Shown: one piece after another, positions 813-39,036 of the stretch
Position numbering within the stretch: position 1 is the stretch's first letter
Layout: the number at the start of each line of letters is the position of its first letter
Position numbers and translations under genes: made by a program
The notes under the pieces: model-generated
Told to the model about the DNA's origin: nothing
The model's database searches: none
What the model saw: the letters and a program-made list of their open reading frames with translations, nothing else
From: Giardia intestinalis
Taxonomy: Eukaryota
DNA length: 64,000 nt
NCBI GenBank assembly: GCA_000002435.2
Contig: CM018793.1
Strand: one strand, 5' to 3'

Positions 813-2441
813 ATGGATCCTAATGTAGCCATGCGCTTTGTTCAGGATAAGTTGACGCTCTACCGCAAGCGCATGGATGTGAGCGCAATCAAAGATTTGA
901 TATCCAGAATCAGAGTTTTGAAAACACCGGAGGACGCCGAGGATCTCGTGATGAGGGTCATTCTTTGCTCAACCGGAGCTATGATTACGAGCGATATCTA
1001 TGCGAATATTGTAACCGCACTAGAGTCCCAAGGATCGGACATTTTCAAAGCAAGCGCGATTCTGTCTCTGGGTAATACGACTCCATTTTATTCTGTACAT
1101 GAGGACCACCTAATCCTGACCTCAGGCGTGCAGAAACATACACGCGAGACTATCTCCAATACTATCAAGCTTCGCATAGCCTTTCTGCAGAGACATCTTT
1201 TGCAGTATGTTAATACTACCTTTCCCATTGGCTCTAAGGATGCGCTGTTTGCTTCGTGTTTAAATTCTTGTAAGCACCTCTCATCACTAGCTTTGCTGGA
1301 AGGAAATAACAGCTCTTGTGTCCTGGTTGCGGGAGTGCTCCATGACACTCACGACGCTTTGCAACTAGAAGATGAAACTGCCCTTGTTACTTTGTTATTA
1401 GACAAAATAAAATACAACAATATTCAAAATTTTGACACATTTTTTTTAGAAAATCAGACTCAAGTTTCCTTGCCTCTTCTAAACCAGGCAGTTGTGGCAG
1501 TGGTTGGATCGGTGGAAGGCGGGAAGCTACGGGCTAACGCAATATTTACTCCACTGATCGAAACGCCGGAGAGCTTCAATGCCTTGATGGGCACAGATAA
1601 GACGCCTGCATATAAAAGCATCTTCAGTACAGTTCATACAAACACACCCGAATTCGGTTTAGTATTTTCCCAGGTATTCTTCTCCGACAGTCGATGTGTT
1701 AATGACCTCCTGCTCATGCTAAAAGAATACGACAGGAACACAGAGAGCAAACACATACCTTCGCACATAATTATTTTCGGAGTTTTTTGCGAGGGAAGAC
1801 AATCTTCTCCGTCTAATGCGCTTCTGAACATAAAAAAGTTTCTTGATGCGTTAATTACCGAGCAGCTGACCAAGATGACTGAACATACACTTTTTGTGTT
1901 TGCTCCCCACAAAGCTGACCCGTCATTGACAGGTGATGTATATCCTCGACAACTCTTTTCCAAAAAAACTGTCGATACATTAAGGACAGACTATCAGACA
2001 CTAAAGCTGTCCTTTCCCACAACGCCATTCCACCTCGCGTACGGGCACCAAACATTAGTACTTTCGAGCATGCCCCATGAGGAAGTATTTCTCAATCTCA
2101 CAAAAGATAGTACAGTGATGACGGAGATTGAGGAGTACTATGCGACGCACGAGGAGCTCGCAAACTTCATCGTCGCCCAGAAAAACTTATTTCCATTTCC
2201 CCACAGCACGGCCCCTTGGCTCTGGGGCGCAGACCCTTTGCTAAATCTTCTTCCACTTCCAAATAGCATTATACTAGCTGATGGTGCGTTTGCACGGTGT
2301 TCTGTAGCTTCGGGAGTAACTGTTGCGAGTCCTGGAAGTTTTTATACTGATAGAACGTATGTTGTCTTCCACGCGGCCAAAACCAACTCACCCATTGACA
2401 TTCTTCAATTGAGCAAGCAGATGGACAGCGCAGAGTTGTAA
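813..2441 (+). CDS. Hypothetical protein, 542 aa. Weak resemblance to the B-subunit (calcineurin-like phosphoesterase fold) family of replicative DNA polymerases.
   Basis: Long ORF starting 11 nt after the upstream stop. Motifs TLFVFAPHKADPS and PWLWGADPLLNLLPLPNSIILADG resemble the VLVPGPNDP / PD-x-GN region of Pol alpha/delta/epsilon B subunits. The resemblance is by eye only. Confidence 0.5.
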   Translation: MDPNVAMRFVQDKLTLYRKRMDVSAIKDLISRIRVLKTPEDAEDLVMRVILCSTGAMITSDIYANIVTALESQGSDIFKASAILSLGNTTPFYSVHEDHLILTSGVQKHTRETISNTIKLRIAFLQRHLLQYVNTTFPIGSKDALFASCLNSCKHLSSLALLEGNNSSCVLVAGVLHDTHDALQLEDETALVTLLLDKIKYNNIQNFDTFFLENQTQVSLPLLNQAVVAVVGSVEGGKLRANAIFTPLIETPESFNALMGTDKTPAYKSIFSTVHTNTPEFGLVFSQVFFSDSRCVNDLLLMLKEYDRNTESKHIPSHIIIFGVFCEGRQSSPSNALLNIKKFLDALITEQLTKMTEHTLFVFAPHKADPSLTGDVYPRQLFSKKTVDTLRTDYQTLKLSFPTTPFHLAYGHQTLVLSSMPHEEVFLNLTKDSTVMTEIEEYYATHEELANFIVAQKNLFPFPHSTAPWLWGADPLLNLLPLPNSIILADGAFARCSVASGVTVASPGSFYTDRTYVVFHAAKTNSPIDILQLSKQMDSAEL

Positions 2442-2471
2442 ATAACTAAGTCTACAGGAAAATCACGAGGA

Positions 2472-3257
2472 TCACATGATGAAGCACCCACCCTGCTTAT
2501 CCGCAGAGCTCTTGAAGTTGTCCCACGACGCGCCATCAATGAAATCATAGTCGTCTGCGACACCTCTGGCCAGACAGAGGACAGACCGGACGATCGACTC
2601 GGTATACACGCTCACCTCAGCCCAACGTAGCTCTCTGTCGAGCACAAAGTTGCGCATTTGTGCCTTTAGCTGCTGATCTACCACATTCTCAACATTGCAA
2701 ACAGCCAAGATGTGTGGCACAAAGCGAGGAGCAGTCATGGCACGCTTCAAGGTGTCTAGTGTCAGGCCAGAGGAAGGATCAGACGACGCTGGGAGAAGAG
2801 CCGCATTATAGATGCTCTGGAGTCGGACAGACTCTTTTCTGAGGATGACAGTCACCTCGTCTACGTGTGCCTTCATGAAGGCTACTGATGCGTCTGAGGA
2901 CAGATCGCAAACGAAGACACATGCAGAAGTAAGAGGATAGTCCTTCTGAATTCTTGTTATCCCCTTTTCAGGCACATTAATAATCTTAAGGCACAACTGC
3001 TTGCTGTCGATGAAGCTGGCAACCGTTAGAGAGTTGCTTTTTTCTCCCTTTTCCCCGCACGGAATCTGAAAATACTCTCGCAAAAGCTCAAATAGTTGTG
3101 TCTTACTAGAGTCATCTGTCCCCAGCAACAGTATAGTGAGCGTGTATTCCCGTGATTCCTGGGGCCGTGGGGCTGTCCTCTCTTCTATCAAAGATACTAT
3201 TGATTCAACAACTGCCGGCTTGAGTGGCGCTGTTGTAGAATTAACGATTACTTCCAT
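2472..3257 (-). CDS. Hypothetical protein, 261 aa, with a degenerate Ras-superfamily-like P-loop arrangement. Possible pseudo-GTPase.
   Basis: Hydrophobic strand plus G-TDDSSKT (GxxxxGKT with the second Gly changed to Ser), followed by weak G3/G4-like segments (KIINVPEKG, ILAVCNVEN). Long ORF in a compact region. Confidence 0.45.
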   Translation of the reverse strand: MEVIVNSTTAPLKPAVVESIVSLIEERTAPRPQESREYTLTILLLGTDDSSKTQLFELLREYFQIPCGEKGEKSNSLTVASFIDSKQLCLKIINVPEKGITRIQKDYPLTSACVFVCDLSSDASVAFMKAHVDEVTVILRKESVRLQSIYNAALLPASSDPSSGLTLDTLKRAMTAPRFVPHILAVCNVENVVDQQLKAQMRNFVLDRELRWAEVSVYTESIVRSVLCLARGVADDYDFIDGASWDNFKSSADKQGGCFIM

Positions 3258-3350
3258 CTTTTTTGTGATGATGGCAGAATTTAAGTTTTTTGTCCTCTCT
3301 TGATTCTGTTCTGGAGATCTAAAGCCGGGGCCGTTTTTACTGCTTACCCC

Positions 3351-4118
3351 CTACTTCTTGCGTCCACGGCCCTGCACCTGCTCCAGTTGTGTCAATATCT
3401 TCTGTCCCTGGCCTTTGTCTCCACTGTGCTCGTCCATATAGCAGACATAGAACTTCAGCACGGTTTCAAAGAAGGGACAGGGGCCACATAGCGCGAGAAT
3501 AGAGCGCTGGAAGACGTAAAGATCGACAGCCATCGTCTCTGGGGTGATTGGCGACCTAGAGGCTAACCCAAAATCTATGACACTGAGCCTGCGCTCATCT
3601 CTATTATAAAGTAAATTACTTGTAGTCAGGTCGTTATGAACTATGCGAGCCATATGAAGCCTCGCAATGGTAGACCCTACGAGCTTTGCAAACGCCTCAT
3701 CGAATAATAAATCGGTGCTGTCAGCCAGGTGGGTGGAGACGGAGGAATCACGTATCCAGGACATGTATATACACCCGTTGGGCTCATCAACATAAAGCAC
3801 ACTAGGAACAGCTAGGCCAGCTGCGTGTGCCGCTTCCAAGGCTCGTGCTTCAGCTCTAGTTCGCCTCTGTCGAATCTGCCTGTCTAGTGCAGGGTGCCTG
3901 TATTCTTTAGGGAAGCGGTGCTTTGCGATAGCATCCTTCCCTGACGTGGACAGAGTCCCGGAATAGATGCGCGCCTCAGCGCCCTGAAATAGAAGGGAGC
4001 AGTTGTCCAGGGCTACGGTGAAGTTAGATGTGCCTGGAGGTCCCGTTTTCATTGCCGTGGTCCCAGATTCAATCATTAAAACTTTTTGACCACATGTTCC
4101 CCTCATTGCATTTGTCAA
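3351..4118 (-). CDS. BUD32: Bud32/PRPK (TP53RK) atypical protein kinase, KEOPS complex subunit
   Basis: GAEARIY ... KHRFPKEYRHPALDRQIRQRRTRAEARALEAAHAAGLAVPSVLYVDE ... HNDLTTSNLL ... IDFGLA. This is the characteristic Bud32 glycine loop, the KxYRHPxLDxxL-RxRRTxxEAR segment, the catalytic loop and DFG. Confidence 0.8.
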   Translation of the reverse strand: MTNAMRGTCGQKVLMIESGTTAMKTGPPGTSNFTVALDNCSLLFQGAEARIYSGTLSTSGKDAIAKHRFPKEYRHPALDRQIRQRRTRAEARALEAAHAAGLAVPSVLYVDEPNGCIYMSWIRDSSVSTHLADSTDLLFDEAFAKLVGSTIARLHMARIVHNDLTTSNLLYNRDERRLSVIDFGLASRSPITPETMAVDLYVFQRSILALCGPCPFFETVLKFYVCYMDEHSGDKGQGQKILTQLEQVQGRGRKK

Positions 4119-7100
4119 TTAGGCCGAACTTTTCGCAGAGGAGTGTCATTGGTGTGGCCATCTACACCTACTCCACTCCCCTCAAGCTTCCCCTTCCCAT
4201 TATACCCATATTCTGCAGGTCTTCTATCATCAAACAAATTCTGCTTAATGGTATTGAATGCCCTTCAGAGGCTTTGTTTCCCATCAACCACAGCTTACTA
4301 TACTCGGCGGAAAGTGCACCGAAACCCTCAAAGTCTTACACCTCTCTTTTAGACCTTCAGGATCTCGTTTACACAGCGCGCACCGTCAGGTACCGTGTCG
4401 GGGACTTCTATTTAGATCTCAGCTCACTTCTTCCTCAGTTTGCTTTAGCGGAACAACTCAAGGCATCAAGCACGGCATTGGGTGGATCCCTGGACCCAGA
4501 CGCTACAGACACCGTCAAGGATCCGCTACACGCATCAGCTGCAGCCCCCCGATTCAACCTCATGACCATCACTATTATTTTCGAGACCTGCAACAGATCT
4601 CTTTTTATTGAGTACCCCAGTACCTCCACTCTCATGTCTGGACGGCTGAGCACAATGTTAGTCGTTGGAAACACTGGCAACTCAGCTGATTGGTTGCCCA
4701 TTCCATTGTTTTCTATGTCGGTTAGCCACAACATTACTCTTCAGTTCGCTTCGTTACCACAGGAGTATAGGCCAATCTGTGGGGGCCGGCTGTGTATCTG
4801 CAGCCGAGCTGGTAGTCAATCTCTTCCCGCTACACAGGTCACATGTGCCTCGACGGGATATCTATTTACGGATCTTTTCGGGAGTTTGCACAAGCTGTGC
4901 TTTATTATTGCACGTGCTAATGGATTTCTTCACATGGAACCCTTCCATACTCCAGATGCTAAGAATGTAAAAGATGGAACATCAGCTAATAGAAAGGAGT
5001 CTCAGCATAGCTTTGACTTCCTCAGAACAGAGTACCATAAGCTTATTGACCAGCACAGAACAATTAGTATTTACGAATTAGTGAGATTGTCACCAATTCT
5101 CCAAAGCATCTTCACGTTTCCTCATAACGCCAAAGATGGAGGGTTCATCGGGTTAAATCTCGTTTGCTATACATTAACAAATATGAGGCAGTACGATCTT
5201 TCTGCACAGGTGTATACTCTTTATAAAGCGTTTAGGCTGGCCATAGACTTCCTGTCACTCACACCGCACAGGGGCCGAAATTTCAATATTGCTATCTTTT
5301 TTGATGGCTGTGGTCGCACGATAATCGGAAATGGCATCATTGTTATCCCACTGATGCCCTGCAACTATATGGCTGCATGCATGAGCTATATGAGGGTTAT
5401 TTCCGAGGTCGTCGCCAAGTACATATTTGGGGTTCACGTTCCCGCTGCAGACTACGCTAGTCAGCCCGTATGCACGGTTCTTCAGCAGGCTCTCATGCTT
5501 CACATACGGCACGCGTTGCTTGGTGCTGTGGATACTCGTCGGTTCTATTACGAAGTGAGCATTCGAGGGGCGTCGGAGGTTTCCGCGTCAAGTCCTGCAC
5601 TTTGGCATCAGTACCTTACGCATGATGTTGAAGAACGGTACAACCCAGGCCAGTTTTACCTCCATCACATCAAGGGAGCTCTCAATTATGGCTTGTATGG
5701 CACACCAATGGATAGGATTGATGGCCTCTTGAAGAATGTTGGCTGTACATCCAAAGGCACACTGAACGCCAGCATAAAAAAGGCATCAATCAAGGCACCT
5801 GCGTGCATAAGTCATCTGGAGGCAGTCTATAACTTCTTAGATACTTCTTTCGGCACATCCTACAGCGTAAAGCCAAGCAATAAAAATGTATGGTTAGCAG
5901 AAAGTGACAAGGATCGCTTGCACTTTCTGAACAGTCAGGGATCATATAAAAGCGCAAATTTGAAGCTGAAGAAAGGGAAAAAGTCCCATGCCTCAAAGTC
6001 CCACGAGTACTATCCGTCCGATTGCCAGATTTATACCACACATTTAAAGGAAACAAATCCTATTGAGGTTGCTGCGCTGACAGCAGACAAGTCTCGATGG
6101 TTTAATCATAATACTCTTTACAATGTTGATTTTCTATTGAATTTGTATCGATCAACAGCCGCAACAGCTTTCACACAGATGGGTGCACTCACTAATAAGC
6201 ATGTAGAAGATCTTGCGCAGACAACTATCCATCATTCCAAACATGCAGTCTCATTGGATCCAGATAACTTCTCGCTCGGCAATTCCTTTTCCTCTCCTAC
6301 TATGCCGCGTAAGATGGGGATGCAGCTCTCAACGGCACTTAAGGTAGACCAGTCTTTTGAGGTTGATGATGTTGTGACAGATTTCGGTGTAGACATTGAT
6401 AGTCAATCGGCAGCATCAAGTTCAGTTTTTGCTGGAGGAAAGCAATCTGGAACGTTCCGTAGCGTCGATACCCAAGCAGCATATACACTGTACGGCACTC
6501 AGAAGTCCGGGATTCTCAAAGGAAGCCAGTACTCGGCCAATATGTCTGACGGAGTAGATGGCGATTCAGCCCTTCTACTGTCGCTTAAGCGACCCATGGA
6601 TGCATGCATTCAATCACTGGCCAACTCTCTTTGCCTGGACATGGAATCGCTGTCTTTGATGTACTTTTATATTAATGAGCCATTCTTCCCCATAGCATAT
6701 GCGGTTCCCGAAGATAAGATCCGCACCCGTGCAGAGATTATTGGGATGACCATCAGGAACAACCTCACTACTCAGGGTTTTCGCAGCTTTCTCCAGAGCT
6801 TTCTTGACATAGGGTATGTGCAAATTAATTTGTTCTTTAAGTTCCTGGACGAGGTTTGCTCAAATAAAAGCTACTTCACCGGGGGAACGTGGCTTAAGAC
6901 AGTAGCAAGCGATGCACCAGACATTTCTCCGGAGAAAGATGCAGGGGTTGACTTTCCGGATCCTAACCTTTCACTTTTGCCCGACACAGGTGAGTATAGT
7001 TTGAACATCACAGTACTAAAAGGAGCCGCTGGAGCGGGTGAAGGCTTCTCTGCTGAGCAGTACAAGTTGGGCCACGAAACGCTTCATGCCAGTTTTTCTT

Positions 7101-10100
7101 TAGATGCTTCTTTACGTGAAGCCTCTTTTGACCCTAGAGCTGATATTGAAGGTGTTTACGCTAGTATGTCTCCTACAGCACGACTCGGTGACGACGGATA
7201 TAATAAGCTCGAACAAAACCAAAGCGACACACAAGCAGCTTCCAGTCCTCATCCATTTACATTTCTAATCCACAAATTGGGTATTATGCCCAATTACATA
7301 TCAATAGCATACTCCTGTCAGCAGGATAGCACAAACAATCAGTTCACAGACCAATTTGATATCATTCTCTTAAATATGACTACAGGGCTAACAGACTGTT
7401 TAAAAGACACATGCACGAAAATAGGTCTACCATTAATCAATAGAGGAGAGTCTGCGGCTGGATGCAGACGCTTGCTATTCTTCCCCAACATAGAAGGGCC
7501 ACATGAGTTCAGCAAGAGCTACGATTTTACTACTTTTAGAGGCACTATGGCATCGGATGCTAACCTTGCGGTGCATGAAATTACTGACATGCAGCATGCG
7601 GAAAGACACGATAGCCGCTCCTTCACAGTTATAAAAGGCGCAAGCAGCAACCTTTATGCTAGCATTCATATGCTCCAGCAGCCGGGACGGATGGGCAGTG
7701 GTGGATCCGGGACCTTGAGCTTTAACCTGTTGACAAGGATTGGAAGTGAGTTTCTAGAGAATATAAAAGCTGAAACCTTTATTGAGAAGAGCTTTTACGA
7801 TACTATCAAGACCAAGAAGTTTGCACACGTGATTATAGACCCTTATAATCAGCTCCCGTTTGCATATAAGCACCACTATGCGGAAAAGAACGATAAAGAT
7901 AATAACAATTGCTACAGATCTATCGCCAAGGTCGATTGTGAACGAGACATAGCTGTGCAGCTAGAGTCTTTGAACTCACTTAGCTATAATTGTAACAATG
8001 ACGTCATTCCCCTTCTCTTGGGTATTCTTTATTCTGAGGCAGTAGCACCAGCACTCCAAGAGACCGCGTTCAAAATTCTCATCTATAAAATAACCCGCGA
8101 TAACTTCTATGAGGCTGTTAACAAAGAAATGAGCCGTCTTGAAATGAATAGCAAGGTTAAAGAGCAAAAGCAGTGGATTCTCTTGTTGAACATATACTTC
8201 TTCGGCCATAGACGCCTGTTGAACGCATTTCCCATTCTTCCAGATGGGTACACCGGGCTAACGGCACACAGATATGATCACGAATGCATTATGAAGCTAG
8301 ATGTAGGATCGTTGGTCGCTTATGCCCTGCTGTGTGGGTATGTCTCTATGTCCAAAGCCACTGACCTGCTCTCCTTGTTAAACAAGGACAGTGATACTGC
8401 CTCCTCTAGTCACGCACTAACGATAGCGGTTCTTCAGGCACTTACCTGGCAAATAATCCGTAAAGTGATCGTTATTAATACAGAAGTCTACATGGTCTTG
8501 CTCATCTTCATCAACTTTCTTATTAGCAACGCCACTATGATCTCTGTTCGCCGAATGGCCATTTGCTCGTTGACATTAATCGTATCGACGGCCTGGGAAA
8601 ATCCTGGAGTAGCGACTGCTCTTATTGATCTTTTCAATGAAAAGGAGCTTATTTCGGAAAAGATACGCCTCCTTATTAGTTGCTTATTTGGTGGTGGTTG
8701 TTGCGACCAGGATTTGCATGCTATTAGACCCAGTTTGCTCGATACAAAAGATCGTCCTAGATGCTCCTGTAATTGCTGCAACTGTGCACTTATAAACAGC
8801 GATAAATCACTCGGTCCCTTTATTATTATAAGGGTGATTTTTGTCCACATTCTGTTAGATATCATAGATTTATACCTTGAGAACAATAGAAATTCATCTG
8901 AATCCAGTATGGACGCGACACACCTGCATTACTCTCCAGCTGTGGCCGGGATGTTCATCAGCCGGGAGGTTGTGGACGAGTGCTTCCACTGCCTGGACTT
9001 GCTGGGAACAAATAACTACATGACCTCCAGCGACTCAACCGCGTACATCGTCCAGCCGCTCTCGAGCCGCTTCGTCGCGGCCCTGTACAGAGGGACGGTC
9101 TACTCCCAGACACACAGCATGGACCCGTGCAACCGCTACGCCATGTCCAACGCGGAGGCGCTGGTCTTCATGATGGCCTACGTGACCCATCTCTTCACCC
9201 TTCCCCTTAACGAGTCCAAACAGGTTGAGTGGGACGTGCTGCGCGGGTGCCCCGTATGCCTCGTCAACGGGGGCTGCCGGTGCGTACGAGTGAGCTGGCC
9301 TGCCGTCAGGAGCCCCGACTCAAAGTCTGCCCCACAGAACTACGTGACCGTTCGGTGCCTGACGTCGGACTTCTTCTGGACATACGAGCAAAGCTCTAGC
9401 AGCTATGCTAGCCTTGAGGAGTACTTCGATAAGCATTACGTGGCCCAGGACCCCATCACAGCCGCAGTGTTTGAAAACGGCAGGCTGGTCAACGCCCACT
9501 TCAATCCCAAGAAGCGCTACGACGCGGTCCTGTTCAGACGAGCGGACAGGGCGGACAGAGAAGACAATAGCACAAACCCCGAGCCCCGGGCGAGCTCGTG
9601 CTACCCGGAATTCATGCTTCCGTGCCTCTACAACCCGACCACGCGCATCAACTATCCCGGGTACCTATTCAGACAGTGCCTCTTCGACGCCGCGGGCTGC
9701 ATGATCGGGCAGTCTGTCGCATCCCGGCTCATCGACATGCTCTTGTATCCGGCAGGGCCCCGGGTGCAGCAGAAGGAGGAAGCCGGCGATGCCTGCACTC
9801 CCGCCGCCTTAGAGTTGTTCAAGAGAGCAGCAGGATTTGGAGAAGACATGCCACTTCTTATCCTTAACGCCATCAGCACGCTGCACGGCGTGAATCTCCT
9901 TAGGGCTCTGCCGCCCTCTCAATTCGACAGTGAGGCAGAGATCGAGGCCCTGGCAGAGCACCAGAGGACGGCATCTTTCAAGGACGCACTGCTGGCAGCA
10001 ACGCACAGCCACAGCGAATACGTCAACGTTATGACGACGTTCTGCGAAGAGAATGTCACGCTGAAGGCGGGAATGAACGACAACGTGTGCAAGATGGAGC

Positions 10101-10207
10101 ACAACATGGGGTACCTCATCCACGCGCGGTATGAGTCGTCCAACGACCAGGTTCGAGGAACGGTGCTGCGGTTCGCTGGATTTGTAATAGGTTACATGCC
10201 CAACTGA
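4028..10207 (+). CDS. Giant orphan protein, up to 2059 aa, no recognisable domain. The true start is probably a downstream Met (for example nt 4559), because the first Met overlaps the Bud32 start region.
   Basis: A 6.2-kb uninterrupted frame in 40% GC DNA, which cannot be explained by chance. The last ~430 codons (from about nt 8900) switch abruptly to about 60% GC. Confidence 0.7.
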   Translation: MCLEVPFSLPWSQIQSLKLFDHMFPSLHLSIRPNFSQRSVIGVAIYTYSTPLKLPLPIIPIFCRSSIIKQILLNGIECPSEALFPINHSLLYSAESAPKPSKSYTSLLDLQDLVYTARTVRYRVGDFYLDLSSLLPQFALAEQLKASSTALGGSLDPDATDTVKDPLHASAAAPRFNLMTITIIFETCNRSLFIEYPSTSTLMSGRLSTMLVVGNTGNSADWLPIPLFSMSVSHNITLQFASLPQEYRPICGGRLCICSRAGSQSLPATQVTCASTGYLFTDLFGSLHKLCFIIARANGFLHMEPFHTPDAKNVKDGTSANRKESQHSFDFLRTEYHKLIDQHRTISIYELVRLSPILQSIFTFPHNAKDGGFIGLNLVCYTLTNMRQYDLSAQVYTLYKAFRLAIDFLSLTPHRGRNFNIAIFFDGCGRTIIGNGIIVIPLMPCNYMAACMSYMRVISEVVAKYIFGVHVPAADYASQPVCTVLQQALMLHIRHALLGAVDTRRFYYEVSIRGASEVSASSPALWHQYLTHDVEERYNPGQFYLHHIKGALNYGLYGTPMDRIDGLLKNVGCTSKGTLNASIKKASIKAPACISHLEAVYNFLDTSFGTSYSVKPSNKNVWLAESDKDRLHFLNSQGSYKSANLKLKKGKKSHASKSHEYYPSDCQIYTTHLKETNPIEVAALTADKSRWFNHNTLYNVDFLLNLYRSTAATAFTQMGALTNKHVEDLAQTTIHHSKHAVSLDPDNFSLGNSFSSPTMPRKMGMQLSTALKVDQSFEVDDVVTDFGVDIDSQSAASSSVFAGGKQSGTFRSVDTQAAYTLYGTQKSGILKGSQYSANMSDGVDGDSALLLSLKRPMDACIQSLANSLCLDMESLSLMYFYINEPFFPIAYAVPEDKIRTRAEIIGMTIRNNLTTQGFRSFLQSFLDIGYVQINLFFKFLDEVCSNKSYFTGGTWLKTVASDAPDISPEKDAGVDFPDPNLSLLPDTGEYSLNITVLKGAAGAGEGFSAEQYKLGHETLHASFSLDASLREASFDPRADIEGVYASMSPTARLGDDGYNKLEQNQSDTQAASSPHPFTFLIHKLGIMPNYISIAYSCQQDSTNNQFTDQFDIILLNMTTGLTDCLKDTCTKIGLPLINRGESAAGCRRLLFFPNIEGPHEFSKSYDFTTFRGTMASDANLAVHEITDMQHAERHDSRSFTVIKGASSNLYASIHMLQQPGRMGSGGSGTLSFNLLTRIGSEFLENIKAETFIEKSFYDTIKTKKFAHVIIDPYNQLPFAYKHHYAEKNDKDNNNCYRSIAKVDCERDIAVQLESLNSLSYNCNNDVIPLLLGILYSEAVAPALQETAFKILIYKITRDNFYEAVNKEMSRLEMNSKVKEQKQWILLLNIYFFGHRRLLNAFPILPDGYTGLTAHRYDHECIMKLDVGSLVAYALLCGYVSMSKATDLLSLLNKDSDTASSSHALTIAVLQALTWQIIRKVIVINTEVYMVLLIFINFLISNATMISVRRMAICSLTLIVSTAWENPGVATALIDLFNEKELISEKIRLLISCLFGGGCCDQDLHAIRPSLLDTKDRPRCSCNCCNCALINSDKSLGPFIIIRVIFVHILLDIIDLYLENNRNSSESSMDATHLHYSPAVAGMFISREVVDECFHCLDLLGTNNYMTSSDSTAYIVQPLSSRFVAALYRGTVYSQTHSMDPCNRYAMSNAEALVFMMAYVTHLFTLPLNESKQVEWDVLRGCPVCLVNGGCRCVRVSWPAVRSPDSKSAPQNYVTVRCLTSDFFWTYEQSSSSYASLEEYFDKHYVAQDPITAAVFENGRLVNAHFNPKKRYDAVLFRRADRADREDNSTNPEPRASSCYPEFMLPCLYNPTTRINYPGYLFRQCLFDAAGCMIGQSVASRLIDMLLYPAGPRVQQKEEAGDACTPAALELFKRAAGFGEDMPLLILNAISTLHGVNLLRALPPSQFDSEAEIEALAEHQRTASFKDALLAATHSHSEYVNVMTTFCEENVTLKAGMNDNVCKMEHNMGYLIHARYESSNDQVRGTVLRFAGFVIGYMPN

Positions 10208-11367
10208 GCAGCACTGAGACCAGGAGGCAGCAGCTCGTGCCGGCGCCAGTTGTCCCTCACAAGAGAAAGCGCCTCGTCCCTGGATAGGCTGCGCTCAGAC
10301 GCAAGAACCTCAATCGCGGTCGCCATTGACCTGTCCCAGTCGTCCTGGTCCTCGCGGTACCAGTCCGTCTCCAGAAGCAGGCACTCCTTGTCAGACTTCC
10401 GTATGCACGCCCGGGTGGCCTTGTTTGCCTCTGTGAAGTGGGACACGGAAAGGAGCACGCGTCCGTGGCATGTAGAGACGGCAGCCTGCAGCTTGCGGAA
10501 TGTCTCGTGGGTCCCGTTGTAGGAGTGCATTATAATGCTGCGATTGTAGCTGGCATACTTCCTGGCCATGGCCTCCAGCTGCTCCGTGAAGATAGGCCAG
10601 AGGCCAGGCTTACGAGAGATGATGTGGACGTTGCAGTCCCTGTTCATCTCGAAGGCCATCTCCAGCTGCGGGGAAAAGTAGCGGGTCTGTGTGTCCAGTG
10701 GAGAGTCAGCCAGCGCGGCCGGCCGAGTGTCCAGGCCTATCTCCCCCACAAACGCGGTCTGGTCCGCAGCCAGTCTTGCTCTGACTTCAGCCAGTGTCGC
10801 TGCAAGATCGGGGTGCATGTGCAGGTAGTACGGGTGCACTCCGTACCCGACTCGTACAGAGAGGGGATGGATCCTCCTGAACTCGGCAAGGTCTTCGAAC
10901 TGAGTCGGGTCTGTGGCGTTCAGGAGATAGACGTGGTCCGGCCTGAACCAGGTGCCGACAAACGCCGAACTGAAGTGGCAGTGAGCGTCAAGCATTTTAA
11001 GTGTCGCCCCTGGGGGCATCGGAGAGATCAGCGTGGGTCTGGAAGAACCGTCGGACGTCCTCAGCAGTAGCAGGGGCTCCTCGAGCTGGCCGCTCCGCTG
11101 GCGGTGGGCCTCGGACGACAGGTGTTGCACCAGGGCCAGGGAGTCCTTGAAGGCGAGATCGCACAGCGTGCACCTCAGACAACCGCTGGATGCACGCTTC
11201 CCGTCGTCGATGACGGTCTGGGTGCCAGAGAGGGCGACCAGCTGCGCATACCTCGACATGCGGACGGTGTCCGTGCGGTCAATTTTCGTTGGTCCATTCA
11301 CTCCTATATCTCCGGACGCTTCACCGCGCCAGGACCTAGAAGGGCTCTGGCGGTACGTATCCTTCAT
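10192..11367 (-). CDS. TatD-family metal-dependent nuclease with an N-terminal C2H2 zinc finger
   Basis: CLRCTLCDLAFKDSLALVQHLSSEAH (C2H2 finger), then MLDAHCHF ... VGEIGLD ... HSY ... ETDW, the TatD/TIM-barrel hydrolase motifs. The gene is GC-rich (about 60%). Its 3' end overlaps the convergent giant ORF by 16 nt. Confidence 0.75.
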   Translation of the reverse strand: MKDTYRQSPSRSWRGEASGDIGVNGPTKIDRTDTVRMSRYAQLVALSGTQTVIDDGKRASSGCLRCTLCDLAFKDSLALVQHLSSEAHRQRSGQLEEPLLLLRTSDGSSRPTLISPMPPGATLKMLDAHCHFSSAFVGTWFRPDHVYLLNATDPTQFEDLAEFRRIHPLSVRVGYGVHPYYLHMHPDLAATLAEVRARLAADQTAFVGEIGLDTRPAALADSPLDTQTRYFSPQLEMAFEMNRDCNVHIISRKPGLWPIFTEQLEAMARKYASYNRSIIMHSYNGTHETFRKLQAAVSTCHGRVLLSVSHFTEANKATRACIRKSDKECLLLETDWYREDQDDWDRSMATAIEVLASERSLSRDEALSLVRDNWRRHELLPPGLSAAQLGM

Positions 11368-11561
11368 CTGTGCGTTTTTCTTCTCACTTATCTCCCTTAT
11401 ATCTTAGGGATACTTCTTTCTGGAGGACTTAGAAGCTACCAATAGGGCAGAGAAGTTAGAGGTTAAGGAAATGGAGGCAAAGCCATTGATGACTGATTTA
11501 TGACGTTGTTTGCACAGCAATTATCACAGGCTTAGGAGACATCCCCCTGTAAGTAGGAAAC

Positions 11562-12233
11562 TCACGAGACAATGAAGCTATTGATCCACGTACACAGGTC
11601 TTTCTGCTCGGCCAATGAACAAAAAATATCCGCTACGCTCACCCCTCCTGGAAATCTTTTCATCATATCATTAATCTCTTCGCCAAAAACGTCTATTTTA
11701 TCGGACACGTGTGTAAATAATAACTTATCATTTTTCGGAACTTTGATCTTCTTTTCGGCCTCTACCAGGGTTTCGTTGACTTCCTCTGAATTGGACACAA
11801 TATCCTGAAGCTGTTTCAGTGCTTGGTACTGACTATTACTAATGGCTTCGACTCTATTCTTGGCACTTTTTAGTTCGTCCCGCAGGCGGTGTAGCTCCAA
11901 GTCAAGCTCGTACGCGTACTTGTAGTGAGTAGCGAACGCTGCGATATGGCGGGATGTCTCTTCTGCAAATTCTCTGTAGAGCTGCTTAAGCTTTGAGAGC
12001 GCCATCTTGCTGGGCGGCCCCTCAGACGCCCTAGTTAATTGATCTGCGGCACCACTTGCCGAGTGAACCAGTCCTGGCTTCTGACCAAAGTTGAAAGCAG
12101 AGCTTGTTGTGTTCAACTGTGAGAGGCCTAGCTCACTCCCACTCAATGGAGCCACCCCGAATCCACCGGTAGACCCTCGAGATAGGTCCACCGCCGGTGC
12201 CAACGAGCCCCCGAATGAGAAGCCGCTCTGCAT
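11562..12233 (-). CDS. FG-repeat protein with a C-terminal coiled coil, nucleoporin-like (Nup62/Nsp1/Nup54-type architecture)
   Basis: N-terminal SGFSFGG / GGFG / FNFG repeats followed by a heptad-rich segment (LKQLYREFAEE ... LELHRLRDELKSAKNRVEAI ... ALKQLQDIV). Confidence 0.5.
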   Translation of the reverse strand: MQSGFSFGGSLAPAVDLSRGSTGGFGVAPLSGSELGLSQLNTTSSAFNFGQKPGLVHSASGAADQLTRASEGPPSKMALSKLKQLYREFAEETSRHIAAFATHYKYAYELDLELHRLRDELKSAKNRVEAISNSQYQALKQLQDIVSNSEEVNETLVEAEKKIKVPKNDKLLFTHVSDKIDVFGEEINDMMKRFPGGVSVADIFCSLAEQKDLCTWINSFIVS

Positions 12234-26249: not shown

Positions 26250-29200
26250 GACATGCCTTACGACGCGGGCCTCTGCCTGCTGGCCCTTGCTGCGGGGGGA
26301 CGCCCTTGCCGTAGCGCCCTGGTGGCCCGCGTCGCCGCTGAGTGTCCGCCGGCGCGTAGAAGACGAGGCAGGCCGAAGACGGCCTCCGTTGCCGGACGGG
26401 CGACGCACGGAGAGCATCCTGCCTCTAGCGCTATGCGTTACAGCAGGCTCGGCGAGCTGCCCTGGTGACCTCTAGTCTGTCCAGGCCAGCTGCAAGAGCG
26501 GGGGACTCGAAGGAGACGAGCCTCGTATGTTGTGGGCAGATGACATCCCGGACTAGCGATAGGAGCATGCTATCTAAAGCCTGCTCTCGAGCTTTGTAGG
26601 AAGAGCCTGGGATCTGGATGGCAGAGGCGCGATCGTGCAGATGCTTCGGGCCAAGCGGTGTGTTCGCCTAGCCATTGAGTGTGCTGAGTACCTCGATGCT
26701 GGTCACAGCTACCGGAGACTCGCAACAGAGACAGGCTCTGTGCAGTTGCTTAAGAGTTCTCGGTGCAGCATCAGATTCCCCGTACTCTTTCGATGACCAA
26801 GTACAGGCTGCCCGATGGTTCTAGATTTCAAAAGAAGAGGCTCCTCTGCCGGTTTGCCTATCTCGCACGACGGAGAGAGCAGTTGGGGCTATAAGGAACA
26901 TCGCAAGCGGCACTACTCAGGCCTGCTGGCTCCCTATAAGCACAGAAGAGAACCTTTTAGGTTCTGAGAGCATCTCGGGGGTCCTTGCCATACGCAGCAC
27001 GATAATTGAGAGCATCGCCTCCATACTGCAACTAGCAGGGTAGCTCTGCCGCAAGTGCCGAACCTCCCCAAAGAGAAGAATATAGTGATGAGACATCTGG
27101 ATCTCTGCACATTCTGAGAGCCTGGCTTGAGATACTAGCTGCTGTGCCCTTCGGTATCTCTGTGAAGCAACGGGCACTGCCACGGTGCCCGTTCACTGTC
27201 CCTGTGCATTCTTCGGCACGTGACAAAAACCACACAAAAGAGGCTGCTACTGGCTATGATATTGCCGATAGAAATTCTGACACCATTTACTTCGACCGAG
27301 TGAAGAGCGCAGGCCCGCTTCTATTCTCTCATAGAGGAACTTGGCTCTAGAGCTTTGATCTCTGTTCACACCTATTGGCCCCTGTGATCTGGCTTTTGTT
27401 CGGGGACGCGCAGATAGACCGTTTACAATAGATCGCGTCCGCGGCTTCTAGCCTTCGACAAAAGCTTAGCGACCGCCCAAGTATGTCCAAAGGACAATAG
27501 CAAAGAGAAAGCATACATGCTCAGATACACGGTCACACTGGATGTACTCGACTTGCCTGACGACGGTGATAACCCAGCCATTCAAGCAGGGAATACTATG
27601 ACCGCGAGTATAGAAGAAGCACCCTATCCAAGGGTCTACACTTGCTGATGGCACGGTGGTGCCCGTCCAACCACTTTTCTGATCCGGACTGGAGTCCCTG
27701 CCCACCTCTCTGCGCTGCATGCTCTGTTATGCAAGGGTCTCTGCACAGAGTCCGCTTGCTCGGTAGGACCGGCCAGTCCAGCAAGGCCGCATGTAAGCAT
27801 CAGTAGAGCTAGCCTTCTACCTTCTGCATCGATAAAGATCCGCCTTGAAAGGAGATGGATCGGGTACTAGAAGAGTAGACTGTCCGTCGAGATATCCGCG
27901 TCTTGAATTCCGTGGCACTATAGGTAGTGACTCTCGATCTCGATCTCGGTCACGGAAGACCGAGAGGAGGAGTGGCCCTCGCAGAGAAATCACCGAAAAG
28001 GCTGGGCCGCAACAGCGTTAGAAGCTACATTGCACAGCCTTCCAGCGTATGTTCAGCATGTCACCAGCGACGACTAGCGGGGACTACAAGATGGCGCGCT
28101 GCAGCAAATCTCGGCCTGCCGTCAGGTCTCTTGGGGCCTGGGTCTGACATGTGCGCATCAACATCAGAAGGATATGCATGCGTACTACAAGGGCCTAGAA
28201 AAGATCGTTGAGGATACTCTGCCGGGTATTAAAGATAAGAGGGAGCCATTTGCGAAACTAGCGTGCACGTAATATAGTCGGGTGGGCACATACTGGATAC
28301 CTGTTAAGAGAACGCTGCTTTATGCTAACGCATTTTTGGGACCACAGAAGAGCACTTCGGACGATTCTAATAAGGGCACAACCATACTCGTCAGGGCTGG
28401 CAGATGCTTCTCTTAAGTCTAGGCACTTCGAGACATCTCAAGCGATCGAGCAAAGAGCTCTGGGATTTTGTACTAAGGTTATGCTTAGACTGAAAGAGGC
28501 GAAGGAAGGATCCACAAACCATAGTGTTGTCTGTTAATAGAAGGATGCCTTGGGCAGACTCTCTAGAACATCTATCAGCGTGTATCAAAACTGATCTGCA
28601 GCATAGTACGGCTTAATTTTAGGAACTTCTGTCCAGGCTATGGCATGCTAAATATAGTCACTACGTAAGAAGATTGGTTTTCAGGGTACCACATTGCGCG
28701 CAATACACAGTGTGGTTCATTGGAAAATTTGTGTCTAATCATTGTGGCAACAGGGCTTCCATCTTGGTAGGTCATTGTCTGGCCAGTAACAAGACTTGCT
28801 TTCGATTCAGAAAAATGAGCGTCTAGGAAAAAATCGCGCACTCCAATGTGCATAGACACTCCGCCCGGCCTATTTTCCTGGGCAGAGCCACCTGTTGGCG
28901 CCTGCGTTGCATATGCCAGAGTTGGAAGGGGCCTCGAAGAAGCCAGCAGCTCACCATGGCTATTGCTGAGGAGCTGGATCGGATCCTCTGTGGCCTGTGC
29001 TATGCTAGGGAAGAACAAGCTGAGGGACGCAAGATCTTAAGCAAGGGCCCGTTGTTCTTACCGCTACGACGGACTACATTAATCATTACGCTTGAGCCTT
29101 GATTACGTCCTTAAAGCAATACTATAGCATAGCAGCAGAGACTGTGAGAATGCTAACTGACCCTAGTAATATATGCTATTGCTAGTGCAGCCCCAGGAGT

Positions 29201-32200
29201 GACGTGTCCTTTCTATTCTGCTATGTTACTCTGCACTGTTGCGTGTCACTTCCCACGTCTGGGGCCATGGATCACAGCAGCGAGCCATTGGGCCGCTCGA
29301 AGATGTGCTTTAATTATTCCGAAGGTGCATGGCCTTCGTTATCTGTCTGGATCAGTAGATGAGCCAATATTCTGGCCATTGCGGCTAAAAGTTCCCACAT
29401 GATCTTTTGTGACCCAACAGTACACGACCAGTAGACAGCCAGATGGGTTATTGCCGGTCCATTCTCCACCCTGGGCTAGATGGGCGCGCATCCTCAGCAG
29501 AGTGGGCTCCCCTGGAACTTCTGTGGTCTCAGATCATTTAGAGCATTCTGGGAGCATCCTTGATTCAAACTTGCATTAGACAAGCACGAACCGTTACATG
29601 ACTCAGAGGATCTCTAACTGCTCGACTACCCTACAACCAATGGTCAAACAGGCATTACAATGAGCGCGCCGGAATATCGGTTAATAGCTGTAATAATTGT
29701 GTCATCGATAGTCATCTAGAACGCTACGCTGCAGCTAACATCAAGGAACGCACTTCTGGAAGTGCCGCAGCCCGTTCAGCCACGGCTTCTGCTACCCTCA
29801 GGCCTAGTCAAATTGCTTCGCCAGGACAGAGAGTCATATGACTCCACAGTAGGTAGCTATGCGGCTCTCACCAGGACACTCGGCTTAGGCCAGCAACTGA
29901 TTCAACTTCCCTAACACGGGAACGCATGTTGACCCACTTCGCAATACGCAGTATGGCATCTTTTGAGCGTCGTCTTTGCACTTTGATGCACGGGAGAAAG
30001 CTTCCTGTTTCTGGCTAATTGGCACAGTGTTCACCGTACACTACACCCAGACCCTGCTTAGTTTCTGTGCATAACGCTTATCAGTGCTAGCAGGCGCAAT
30101 GAGTCTGCTATGGGCCGGGCATTCGTGGAACTGTAGACTGGCACAACGATATTCCAACCGCCGTATACTTCTGTGGTCAGAAGGCCTGGACAAACATACG
30201 AACTAAGCACCGTCTCTTAGGCGTTACTGCAGTAGCAGATCGGGTAGAGAGGACGGGAGGAGACCTGGGCAGAGAATCAGACATGGATCCAATTGAGTTT
30301 GGCTGCAAGGGCTATAAAGACCGGGATCGTACAAACAGCAAACGAACTTCTCCAGTAAAAAATATGCAAGACGAAGCATGGGCCTGTGGGAGGGTGCCAC
30401 TCCTATGGTCAATTACGATTAGCTTAACTCATTAGGATGAATAGGACAGTTTCTTCAATGTAGCCCGCCTAATGAAAAGATAATGTGCTAAATACTGCTC
30501 CACAAATAGATTTGTGTAAGCAGCCATGCGTGGCGTAAGGTAATTACTTGTAAACAGATACAAGTAGGGAGATACGTTGCTAATTTTAACGGCCTGACTT
30601 TGCGGAAGGCAACTTAATACCTGTTATGCAGGGGGCAGCTGACTGATGATTTATGCAACCCTGTATTTGGAGAAAGATACCTTGTGAGGGTCAGATAGTT
30701 TTCAGCCATACGCAATCTGACACCAACCGGTAGATCCTCTGATTCTATCGCATTCTGGTCTACCTCTATCTCTTTGCGTCTCTTCCCATTACCTGGACGG
30801 CCTATCTTTTTGGATACATCATGGCAGCTTTCTAGGCCTGCAAGATGCCTCAAAGTTTCTGCTTGAAACTATAGTAATTCGTACCTCTCGATGACGGTGC
30901 GTACTAGAGCTGAGTACCAACTACATATTGTGGTGGTTGTCAACGGAAGCGATACTCTGCGTAGTATCTCTTAAGCTTGCCGTAACAGGCCCCATAGATA
31001 TAAAGGCCACATGTAGTCTCCAGAGAAGCCCTTGAAAGTATCTGTGTTTGGTGACACAACGCACCAGAAACGAAGGGGAACGCCAAAGCGTCGTATGTTG
31101 AGTCGAAATAAGCCAATCTAATGGCTAGGGGTTTGGAGGCTACTTGATGCATTAGTCGTACACGGATAACAAGGAGATCGGGCTTTCATGCGTACAGGAG
31201 TCACTATCTCGGTCAGCTACTGTCTTCTATCGTTTGGCTCTAGGCCCCTAGTCTGCACTCATTATGAAGGGCCCCCTGCATTCGCGGTATAGGATTTGCT
31301 TTGTGTTCAAGCCATTGTGATCCTTATGGATCTGCTGTTGAGGAAGACCGAGCGAGCAGCCACTAAAAACCATAATAAAGAAATAGGGTCTGTGATCTTT
31401 CCACGCAAGCCACCGCCACCCTGGGCAAGCGGGTATCTCCCACCCTTGCATGGCTGAGATCCACAATCCACAATCCAGAATCCAGAAATTGAAATCTGAA
31501 GTCTGAGATCGGATGTCTTCGATCTCGGCAGGAGGAGAAGAAGTTTTGTTCTGCCGCTCGGGAGTCTCTGCTGCTTCTCGCGGTGTCTTCTGAGGATTCA
31601 TCCCATCCTTTGGCTCGTCGGGGTCACTACCGTTTGGCACCAGTGAGCACACACTATCTCAGGGTCCTGCGTCAGTCGCGACGGCAAGCTTGGCCTTGAG
31701 GGAGCAGCTGACCCTGGTCATGTACTCCAAGGTCTTGGTTCTCTATGATGAAGATCGCATGCCATGAACTTCGGGATATCAACCTCTAGTTCTTCGAGGT
31801 GCTTCTTCGTCTTCTCACGGATTGTATCATCGGTCCCGAGTATGATCAGAGGGTGCGCTCCCCGTGCGCCTCTATCTTGGAGTCATAGTACGCGTTTGTG
31901 GATGTCGATGGAGCACTCCCATGTGTTGTGTCGGGGAAGAGGCTCGGCCCTCTGCTCATGGATCGCAGTGCGCTCTTGCAGGTGGTCCGTCACTCAGCAC
32001 GAGATCATGTCGACGCTCACCCTGTGCAGTGCGTCTAGCTCAGTGATGTGTGGGCTCCATCCATCCTCGCATCACATGGTGTGCTTGGGGTGATGCTTCG
32101 GTCTGTCGAGGCGTCATCCAAAGCATCACGAGCGATCGGGACCGGTTCGCCGTTAGGCCGTCTCTCTCTACAACCGGCGCCCGTCTACTCGAGGGTGTCA

Positions 32201-35200: not shown

Positions 35201-35590
35201 AAAGCCGCAATGCATCCCAAGTCACGGTGTATTGCTCTCGAACTGCCCGCTTAGTTACTCCACGACGTGAGGTAACATATGGCTCTTCACGCTTATATAC
35301 TAATCGGTGTAAAGTCGCGCTACAGAACCTCTGCGCTAATGTTGGCGATCTCCTAAAACCGCAACCCACCAGTTGAGGCAGCGAGCCTGAAAGCCAGACC
35401 ACCATGGTATCCCGGCGTGTGCTGTGTGCCGCTTGCTGAGGCTTTCACTATGGATTCTGTGCTCAAGTGGAATCGTACTCACCTTTACTTTGAGCCGGCC
35501 GAGACTCCGTGCCCTAGCCACTGCAGGCTAGAATAGTACCCCGTCGGCCGGCCGGGCGGAGAGCACCTAGCTACATGAGTCGTTGCCTTA
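26250..35590. repeat. Left arm of a large inverted repeat (about 9.34 kb). GC-rich, with no convincing coding capacity.
   Basis: Every six-frame ORF in 26211-35521 has an identical reverse-complement partner in 39106-48432. Coordinates map as x to 74627-x. Boundaries were read directly from the sequence: the outer edge is near 26250 and the inner edge near 35590. Confidence 0.9.
34667..34761 (+). tRNA. tRNA-like element. Possibly an intron-containing tRNA gene, a pseudogene or a tRNA-derived repeat.
   Basis: Canonical T-arm CCGGG-TTCGACT-CCCGG. Acceptor 3' strand CGCCTCA pairs 7/7 (one G-U) with TGGGGCG at 34667-34673. D-arm GTGC-AGCGGGA-GCAT has U8, A14, G18G19 and A21. The anticodon region is 45 nt and cannot be folded into a standard arm: a TGAC/GTCA stem encloses 33 nt, so there is either an intron or decay. 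Confidence 0.35.
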
Positions 35591-35796
35591 GAGAATTGGT
35601 ATACTGCTTTGTTCAGTCATTCTTACTACTTTGTCGTTTTCAAGTAAAACATGCTTTAAATGGCTCTGGTAATTGTAATGTGTTCCCAACCGTAAATATT
35701 ACTTGTTAGCTTTCATTTTCGCAAGTATCTAGCTTCGACATTTTTGTACCATTACCATCGAAAATAATTTGAGTAGCTTTGCTTTCATAAAAATCC

Positions 35797-38700: not shown

Positions 38701-38907
38701 TATGAAAAGGGAATGAAGAGTACACGTGAATCAGAAACTATTCAGCATAATTCAAGCAGTCTTTCTGTTATTTTCAATGTAATACCGGACTCCTTTCCCT
38801 CGGGCTCAACAGCACTTGCGATAGCTAAGAAATGCAGCAAACTATTCGTTGGAAATTATCACCCCATTATCAATCTTCTTTCTCAGTATCCTGAAGAACG
38901 TTATTAG
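35797..38907 (+). CDS. NEK-like Ser/Thr protein kinase with a long C-terminal ankyrin-repeat array (1036 aa)
   Basis: Kinase subdomains VIb/VII appear as IHQDLKPDSILV and ITDFGFC, with APE present. These are followed by a coiled coil and at least 15 ankyrin-type repeats of the form TALM.AA..GH..-v..LL. It is the only gene in the unique spacer of the palindrome. Confidence 0.85.
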   Translation: MTMHDPDQLSQPTEPLRVDQCNPVACGVIGTVYSLKNYPDAVVREIKIGDLPPDIMTALETEIDILPRLAHQNVLEYHQVLTAKDVVYICLPRYCWTLSAIIAISDIKNKRFSEQTVCIIFGQIASALAYLHDPNKCDIKGNPLPVFIHQDLKPDSILVSADETQYVITDFGFCREDLDRGSVVLGVPEYAAPEALILKKYTSASDVWSLGCIVYELITLKRPNFVGTRKPAEVFVDDWSPNLSAIKSTFLKEMLRRIFVVKPENRVSAKELAEILETWKSSRYIIRELKHKEQQIKWNQMLIDRSKRLEENCRQLKATLEDSKAEVRNQIDTIAKLENQSNESSLRIKLLEKEIATLRRTIAYLSPTTESASSTTLIDAVKNNSIDSVKSLVQNLEGLGLRDATDTTTLMCAVHQGKSELVELLATLKMGLQDNNDRNSLMHTAIHDYLQVSKILLPHETEIKDGNNNTAAILTAKERHGDIVDLFTFLNKDGTTALMQAVLQNNIKAIDVLIPLQKGARDNKGMTALMYAAANGHTDAVRFLLEYEKGIKDKNGHNALCHALKNNHLEIANSILQHDDPTDTEGVTALMRAAANNNVAIARLLLPIQKCLKDNKGATALMHAAKAGRLEMVDLLAEYESKCRDNNGQTALMYAASNGYFQATKALLKYEVQMKDNYNNTALSLAIKHRHTEITKLLLWYENDPSWTALMCAAVTGDFETARRHISERDLVDNNGRTALDLAKEAGHGSVIEILDHLDEKGFTALMRAAAQGDLDMVKVLIPVQKGMQTVTDGECSCKNDKYWFNKGTTALMLAAHYGHVDIVKELVKHEYNVHDTRGRTALMIAAAWGKINVVRDLIPFQKGMQTTGDGEYEAGEQGFWFNKGSTALIFASRHCRLNVIKELIEHESRMHDEFGGTALMWAARHGHTQAISLLMEREGRMQNERGWTALMWAVHSIKLEAVKLLIEYEKGMKSTRESETIQHNSSSLSVIFNVIPDSFPSGSTALAIAKKCSKLFVGNYHPIINLLSQYPEERY

Positions 38908-39036
38908 CCTTTTCGATAGCAGCGTCAATCCTCCACTTCGAGACATCAAAAAACATGCTGAGTTCGTTAGCTTTGGTTTCTCTGCCTTTATTAAAGCTAT
39001 AGCACATTTAAATAGAGAAGTGTTGAAGTAGTTCTC

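Follow-up and report, generated by a model that had tools for sequence, protein, structure and literature searches.

The stretch of Giardia intestinalis DNA analyzed here, 64,000 nucleotides (nt) in length and called the window below (contig CM018793.1 of assembly GCA_000002435.2), contains a GC-rich island that covers the 3' end of a giant open reading frame (ORF) and a convergent gene for a TatD-family DNase (Table 1). In intervals of 300 nt along the stretch, background GC content is ~0.42-0.50, about 0.45. Values of 0.41-0.46 at 7800-8900 are followed by 0.54 at 8851-9150 and 0.56-0.64 at 9001-11400, and then by 0.48 and 0.42. The island is a 2.5-kb block of ~0.60 GC, with the rise from ~0.43 to 0.60 at ~8910-8940 and the fall at ~11350. 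Positions 1-300 of the window have 62% GC as well; judged by synteny with P15 (assemblage E), they probably represent the 3' end of an AAA/Vps4-like ATPase gene leaving the window. In the giant ORF, the GC content of third codon positions (GC3) ranges from 0.35 to 0.57 as far as codon ~1600 and from 0.69 to 0.88 beyond. The step is mainly one of GC3, with GC1 slightly raised and GC2 nearly flat. Maximum likelihood analysis of the third positions of all 2059 codons places the change point after codon 1638 (nt 8942; interval of two log-likelihood (lnL) units, 8903-8954), where GC3 goes from 0.476 on the left to 0.782 on the right, with a gain of 67 lnL units, far beyond chance. The convergent ORF at 10192-11367 has GC3 values of 0.68-0.80, and in TatD GC1 is also raised, by ~0.1. 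The island is real. An earlier note on this DNA, made from the sequence alone, correctly described an abrupt switch at about nt 8900 within one reading frame, and the GC3 profile it proposed along 4028-10207 revealed the discrete step just given. Its two ORFs (4028-10207, plus strand, 2059 amino acids (aa); 10192-11367, minus strand, 391 aa), which converge and overlap by 16 nt at 10192-10207, are the same in the ORF list. Its estimate of ~40% GC for the first 4.9 kb of the giant ORF was too low, the measured value being ~45%.

Table 1. Features of the island and its surroundings, with positions in the window.
Feature	Position	Strand	Basis
Giant ORF, GL50803_112295, hypothetical protein, 2059 codons	4028..10207	+	ORF list; name of cluster members
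Edge of the old duplication, unhomogenised, still recognisably paralogous, AT-rich	8864..8929	strandless	Paralog identity
Homogenised (gene-converted) core of the 2.5-kb segmental duplication; GC-rich island	8930..~11340	strandless	Identity, contig breaks, GC and GC3 profiles
C-terminal module of 432 codons, also a stand-alone gene, GL50803_60539 (418-447 aa), at the second locus	8909..10207	+	Alignment
TatD-family DNase gene GL50803_92892, 275 aa, GC3 0.74	10192..11019	-	Pfam TatD_DNase; homologs of 267-288 aa
Small zf-C2H2_jaz ORF upstream of TatD, fused in frame to TatD in the window	10997..11367	-	Pfam, residues 64-89
1-nt deletion in a G run, creating the 391-aa zf-TatD fusion ORF	~11072	strandless	Alignment of copies
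223-aa gene GL50803_7685, "R1" flank	11562..12233	-	Exact match to KAE8305503.1

Homologs place the window in assemblage A of Giardia duodenalis, and it belongs to strain WB, of which KAE8305503.1, the exact match of the 223-aa gene product, is a protein. The protein encoded by the giant ORF, of which the GC-rich tract covers only the last ~420 codons, has zero Pfam matches, and its gene has orthologs in assemblages E and B and in Giardia muris. The convergent ORF belongs to the TatD_DNase family (PF01026), with a Pfam match at residues 127-376 of its 391 aa (E = 5.6e-22; 78.8 bits vs a cut-off of 27) that extends over profile positions 2-250 of 253; a sequence comparison with solved structures gave no match at E <= 1e-3. 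The earlier note had treated this ORF as a single TatD gene. TatD is indeed encoded, in 275 aa, but the remainder is the small zf-C2H2_jaz ORF, which the deletion joins to it. In the other copies of this region with called ORFs (contigs L003, L004, L005, L008, L009, and L017), the zinc finger is encoded by a separate ORF of 87-123 aa, and the extra G at the deletion site is present in 10 of 10 other aligned copies, including one linked to the giant gene (L007) and assemblage E. The 391-aa "TatD" of the current annotation of WB is thus due to a frameshift that is peculiar to WB or to a sequencing error in the homopolymer. Rfam (gathering thresholds) and ARAGORN searches of the whole window gave no matches, and in the literature nothing relevant was found for the four gene identifiers, for Giardia TatD, or for the locus.

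The 3' end of the giant gene exists in a second copy. The 90%-identity cluster of the giant protein contains, besides GL50803_112295, proteins of 418, 432, and 447 aa, including the 418-aa GL50803_60539. These short proteins correspond to the last ~430 residues of the giant with 97-100% aa identity (P0014, P0015, P0018, P0022, and P0025). Each copy is adjoined by a TatD gene, GL50803_92892 next to the giant gene and GL50803_91127 next to the short gene, and the duplicated segment comprises the ~430 codons at the 3' end of the giant gene, the TatD gene, and the small zinc-finger ORF. On contigs with the short gene, homology to the window is found only rightward of 8864, and leftward lies an ankyrin-repeat gene. 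Identity between the paralogs is random just upstream of 8864 (19/66, 29%), reaches 75% (50/67) at 8864-8929, and is 99.6% from 8930 onward, with the last mismatch of flank type at 8929. Over 2406 nt the island and the ankyrin-linked copy on L010 are 99.58% identical. On the right, position 11336 is where four short-read contigs end, and 11347 is where homology to the copy of P15 that is linked to the flank "R2" (see below) is lost. Both loci are present in assemblage A (window, L004, L010, and L014), in E (L003 with the giant gene, L017 with the ankyrin gene), and in B (L001 with the giant gene, L018 with the ankyrin gene); L001 was placed in assemblage B because its giant protein clusters with named assemblage B proteins. 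According to these alignments and the gene order in WB, the island is one copy of an old segmental duplication of ~2.5 kb, and the 4.0-Mb chromosome on which it lies also carries the other copy at a different place.

WB, DH, and P15 show two loci, and contig L011 has a third left flank. On this short-read contig (L011:1-1271), the usual flank on the ankyrin side extends for only 89 nt from the short gene and then gives way to a proteasome-subunit gene. The junction could be an assembly chimera or could point to a third copy or arrangement. The start codon of the short gene is ATG in DH and P15 and ATA in AI-like copies (L010:2996, equivalent to window position 8864), which fits the shorter 418-aa gene model in WB with an internal Met start.

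Within each assemblage the cores of the two copies are nearly identical (A, 99.58%; E, 99.63%; B, 99.44%). Between assemblages, core identity is 88.7-89.0% for A and E and 77.5-78.2% for A or E and B, regardless of which locus is compared. The 42-nt edge at 8864-8905 behaves differently and clusters by locus, not by assemblage: 36/42 positions agree between the giant-linked copies of A and E and 32/42 between their ankyrin-linked copies, vs 28/42 between the two copies of A and 22/42 between those of E. The ankyrin flank and its intergenic sequence are orthologous and common to A, E, and B. The duplication must therefore be older than the split of these three assemblages, and its core evolves in concert. 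Alternatively, the segment could have been duplicated recently and independently in each assemblage, but the locus-specific edge and the common flanks argue against this possibility. Two loci with different flanks, paralogs that are closer than orthologs, and a duplication that predates the A/E/B split thus show that gene conversion keeps the core near-identical. Synonymous divergence is slightly lower inside the island than outside (A-E, 0.21 vs 0.28; A-B, 0.43 vs 0.45), a difference that is not diagnostic.

The flanks of the two copies have been rearranged. In WB, the order is giant gene, TatD, and the 223-aa gene (flank R1) at one locus and ankyrin gene, short gene, TatD, and a 1661-aa gene (flank R2) at the other. 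DH (AII) has the ankyrin side joined to R1, and P15 has both the ankyrin side with R1 and the giant gene with R2 (contigs L003, L004, L005, and L017). The gene order at the second WB locus was deduced from the order of accession numbers in two WB annotations; by the same order, both loci are on one 4.0-Mb chromosome, ~615 genes apart and apparently in direct orientation. Most simply, a reciprocal exchange within the repeat would have occurred in the AI lineage; more speculatively, the 2.5-kb repeat may thereby have mediated a rearrangement of the 4-Mb chromosome in this sub-assemblage. A collapsed or chimeric repeat could in principle create an artificial junction together with a compositional step, and a 2.5-kb near-identical repeat at whose edges short-read contigs break, with flanks in WB unlike those in DH and P15, would invite such an artefact. 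It is nevertheless hardly credible as the source of the island. Giant-gene contigs that span the step were recovered from P15 (L003), from the assemblage B-like L001, and from an independent assemblage A read set (L007), and the orders giant-TatD and ankyrin-TatD-16916 are found in both the 2007 and the later WB annotation.

Wherever the homogenised tract ends, so does the GC enrichment. In assemblage A (window), the GC3 change point at 8942 (8903-8954) compares with an identity boundary at ~8930. In E (L003), the change point is at 12120 (12108-12126) and the identity boundary at 12114, and in B (L001) the respective positions are 8274 (8202-8313) and 8308. The boundary in B is equivalent to position ~9153 of the window and is ~220 nt further into the tract than that of A. 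Consequently, codons 1636-1708 of the giant gene (73 codons) are within the tracts of A and E and outside that of B, and their GC3 is high in A (0.86) and E (0.78) but low in B (0.37; p = 9e-10 and 8e-7 for the contrasts). Upstream of these codons, GC3 is 0.34-0.45 in A, E, and B; downstream it is 0.76 in A, 0.75 in E, and 0.57 in B. At the opposite end, the tract of E extends ~400 bp further, into a 1659-aa gene whose last 157 codons are thereby included and have a GC3 of 0.75 vs 0.51 in the 300 codons before them. A fragment of this gene at the other E locus (L017) has 0.53-0.63 GC vs 0.34-0.46 in its flank. In the short gene, the codons outside the tract, which are the first 22 in A and the first 14 in E, have a GC3 of 0.45 and 0.36, and the next 100 codons have 0.84 and 0.79, respectively. 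The GC3 steps thus lie inside three ORFs, namely the giant ORF, the short gene, and the 1659-aa gene of assemblage E, and the enrichment is confined to the converted tract and shifts with the tract boundary across three assemblages.

A nested gene that starts at the in-frame ATG at 8909, behind the AT-rich sequence, was considered and rejected because this ATG exists only in the giant copy of assemblage A (assemblage E and the short copies have GTG instead) and because GC3 tracks the identity boundary, not start codons.

Outside the tract, GC3 of assemblage A genes is 0.08-0.16 above that of their E orthologs (813-8900 and 11562-12233 vs L003 and L017; giant gene, N-terminal part, 0.48 vs 0.34). 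With B as outgroup, these genes show 114 weak-to-strong (A/T to G/C; W>S) vs 25 strong-to-weak (S>W) changes in the A lineage and 46 W>S vs 94 S>W in the E lineage. GC3 of the ankyrin genes at the other locus is nearly equal in the two assemblages (0.49 in A vs 0.48 in E). The higher GC3 of A around the giant gene is a regional, lineage-specific drift.

An abrupt GC step of 17 points within one ORF, next to a gene of the same composition, could suggest that the giant gene had acquired a GC-rich module of foreign or chimeric origin, along with a foreign TatD as its neighbor, and the earlier note had proposed a native gene fused with a differently sourced C-terminal module and a TatD nuclease of foreign or distinct origin. 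However, the G. muris ortholog of the giant protein (P0012) is colinear with it, beginning at residue ~27 and continuing through the step up to the C-terminus, and in G. muris, where only one copy was found among the annotated proteins, GC3 is uniform at ~0.6 across the homologous junction. Therefore, the switch is synonymous and evolved within G. duodenalis. The step is carried by GC3 with little change in GC1 and GC2, and all homologs of the giant protein and of TatD that have a source name are from Giardia. TatD itself has orthologs in all sampled G. duodenalis assemblages and in G. muris, and its composition in assemblage B is ordinary (GC3 0.49). The AT-rich state of codons 1636-1708 in B likewise implies that the composition evolved in place. 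Neither a lack of colinearity in relatives nor a shift at all codon positions, as expected of a foreign segment, was found; a foreign origin and a gene fusion are extremely improbable on these comparisons and are rejected.

A second alternative is translational selection. The short gene and TatD might be highly expressed and have adapted codons, in which case conversion would do no more than transfer their GC3-rich sequence to the giant gene's 3' end. The tract consists almost wholly of coding sequence of a convergent gene pair. Moreover, every codon favored in highly biased Giardia genes has G or C as its last base, and GC3s, the GC content of synonymous third positions, ranges from 26% to 99% among genes (PMC8393687). 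The same genes prefer C-ending to G-ending codons (PMC8393687), and here the island deviates. Table 4 of PMC8393687 served as codon reference, with the top 5% and the bottom 5% of genes by codon adaptation index (CAI) as the high-CAI and low-CAI sets. At four-fold degenerate sites, C/(C+G) is 0.50 in the island vs 0.61 in high-CAI genes (p = 8e-5) and 0.52 in low-CAI genes (p = 0.5). Leucine codons CTC and CTG occur 17 and 39 times in the island vs 4153 and 2262 times in high-CAI (p = 3e-7) and 1399 and 1690 times in low-CAI genes (p = 0.03). For Leu, Val, Arg, and Gly together, the counts of C- and G-ending codons are 65 and 84 in the island vs 14432 and 7234 in high-CAI genes (p = 1e-8), and the island matches the low-CAI ratio. 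The position of the steps is also difficult to reconcile with selection on expression, as the step in the short gene is not at its start but after the first 14-22 codons (GC3 0.36-0.45), and in assemblage E the enrichment also extends over the last 157 codons of the unrelated 1659-aa gene and over the non-functional fragment of this gene at the other locus. Furthermore, TatD has a GC3 of only 0.48-0.49 in assemblage B and in the lineage represented by L015. Thus, neither the proportions of optimal codons nor a bias across whole coding sequences, both expected under translational selection, were found. The island resembles the translational codon bias of Giardia in its high GC3 and in its G- or C-ending codons throughout (PMC8393687), but differs by the absence of a C-over-G preference, by CTG exceeding CTC, and by a bias that starts and stops inside ORFs. 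Translational selection is therefore quite unlikely as the cause.

L015 (ERR3333380) represents a divergent Giardia lineage whose TatD is ~72% identical to those of A and B. Its TatD gene is next to an R1-type flank with an extra NEK-kinase gene between, and it lacks GC enrichment (GC3 0.48). Translationally selected codon bias in Giardia was reportedly described by Lafay and Sharp in 1999.

The best explanation of the island is probably GC-biased gene conversion (gBGC). Recurrent interlocus conversion keeps the cores of the two copies 99.4-99.6% identical within an assemblage, while divergence between assemblages amounts to 11-22%. If repair of the conversion heteroduplexes favors G and C, weakly constrained sites, mainly third codon positions, would drift from ~40% to ~78% GC within the converted tract only. 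The enrichment ends precisely where homogenisation ends, and steps thereby arise in the giant ORF, in the short gene, and in the third gene of E. The base composition is consistent with this mechanism. At four-fold sites of the island, C and G each account for 0.35, so that C/(C+G) is 0.50, and the two genes, which are on opposite strands, give nearly the same ratio (0.48 and 0.51). G and C have risen alike and irrespective of strand, and the non-functional fragment is included. Codon usage in the island looks like background usage shifted uniformly from A/T to G/C, as gBGC predicts. The lack of a step in G. muris, with its one annotated copy, also speaks for gBGC. The local GC-biased conversion tract that the earlier note had offered as its alternative was essentially right, with the addition that the island is a copy of an old homogenised segmental duplication.

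A related possibility is that the bias arises by mutation and not by fixation. Recombination-associated or locus-specific GC-biased mutation, due to repair synthesis in repeated conversion or to a property of the second locus, would produce A/T-to-G/C changes that conversion then spreads between the copies, and it predicts the coincidence of boundaries and the symmetry of G and C equally well. Differences between the paralogs that are young and specific to one copy comprise 8 W>S and 9 S>W changes, and are not dominated by S>W despite a tract GC3 of ~0.78. They are few (n = 17), however, and their polarisation is uncertain. We know of no GC-biased mutational process that is tied to recombination, and we regard this explanation as unlikely.

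Several observations weigh against gBGC or limit the case for it. In a direct but underpowered test for fixation bias, the proportions of W>S and S>W among the young differences just mentioned did not differ significantly from those among the changes fixed in both copies (67 W>S vs 48 S>W). Assemblage B has far less enrichment (GC3 of 0.57 in the giant C-terminus and 0.49 in TatD) despite equally similar paralogs, and the tract is almost all coding and contains little truly neutral sequence. The literature searched yielded no direct measurement of conversion bias in Giardia. Finally, the window contains a 9.3-kb inverted repeat whose arms are 99.98% identical and GC-rich only in their inner third; therefore, homogenisation alone does not guarantee a high GC content. 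This repeat (26255-35595 and 39032-48373; 9,342 bp) has a spacer of 3.4 kb with a NEK-kinase/ankyrin gene (35797-38907). The inner ~3.5 kb of each arm have 61-66% GC and the outer part is ordinary. The arms contain no ORF of >= 200 aa, and their 10 longest ORFs are without Pfam match. The structure could be composed of degenerate repeats or pseudogenes, or could be a real palindrome.

The odd compositional step is thus explained without foreign DNA. The locus offers an internally controlled diplomonad case of GC enrichment tied to conversion, where the same codons are GC-rich if converted and AT-rich if not, and it warns against taking a high GC3 of Giardia genes as a sign of high expression in every case. 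There are also three practical problems, as a near-identical repeat of 2.5 kb breaks or confuses short-read assembly and read mapping, the TatD gene in the reference annotation is a probable frameshift fusion, and the flanks in WB are arranged differently from those in DH and P15. A bolder and rather doubtful extension would be that strong GC-biased recombination or repair in Giardia is behind much of the 26-99% range of GC3, which has long been read as translational selection. If true, GC3 steps could serve for mapping where recombination took place in the past in Giardia, for which sexual reproduction is a matter of dispute.

Converted regions typically show GC and GC3 raised over their flanks, and mosaic concerted evolution with raised GC3 is known from the mammalian gene pairs DDX19A/B, TUBG1/2, and BMP8A/B (PMC2720389) and, through the citation given there, from histone genes (Galtier, 2003, as cited in PMC2720389). 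The island is a new example of this known process. It shares with the mammalian cases two copies with distinct flanks, paralogs that are more similar than orthologs within the tract and diverged outside, and a GC3 raised inside. Giardia differs as a diplomonad protist with two nuclei and disputed sexuality. In addition, one partner is the 3' end of a gene of 2059 codons, so that the step lies inside an ORF, and the tract extends over a convergent, overlapping gene pair with boundaries that vary by assemblage and serve as an internal control. Another parallel is Fxy (Mid1) of Mus musculus, which spans the pseudoautosomal boundary and whose GC-enriched 3' part is attributed to biased gene conversion in the passages of PMC2631073 devoted to it. 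As presented there, Fxy has an ordinary 5' part, a GC-enriched 3' part in a highly recombining segment, and hence an intragenic step like that in the giant gene. In Fxy, however, recombination in the pseudoautosomal region is allelic and meiotic and was accompanied by many aa replacements, whereas conversion in Giardia is interlocus (ectopic) and the changes are mostly synonymous. Within G. duodenalis, conversion tracts have been inferred between AI and AII, with a median length of 3.3 kb and with GC-enriched genes (median 0.541 vs 0.488; PMC12669663). Those tracts were exchanged between lineages, were derived from population data, and are enriched in VSP genes. In contrast, the island reflects conversion within a genome, between two paralogous loci, that has been going on since before the split of assemblages A, E, and B.

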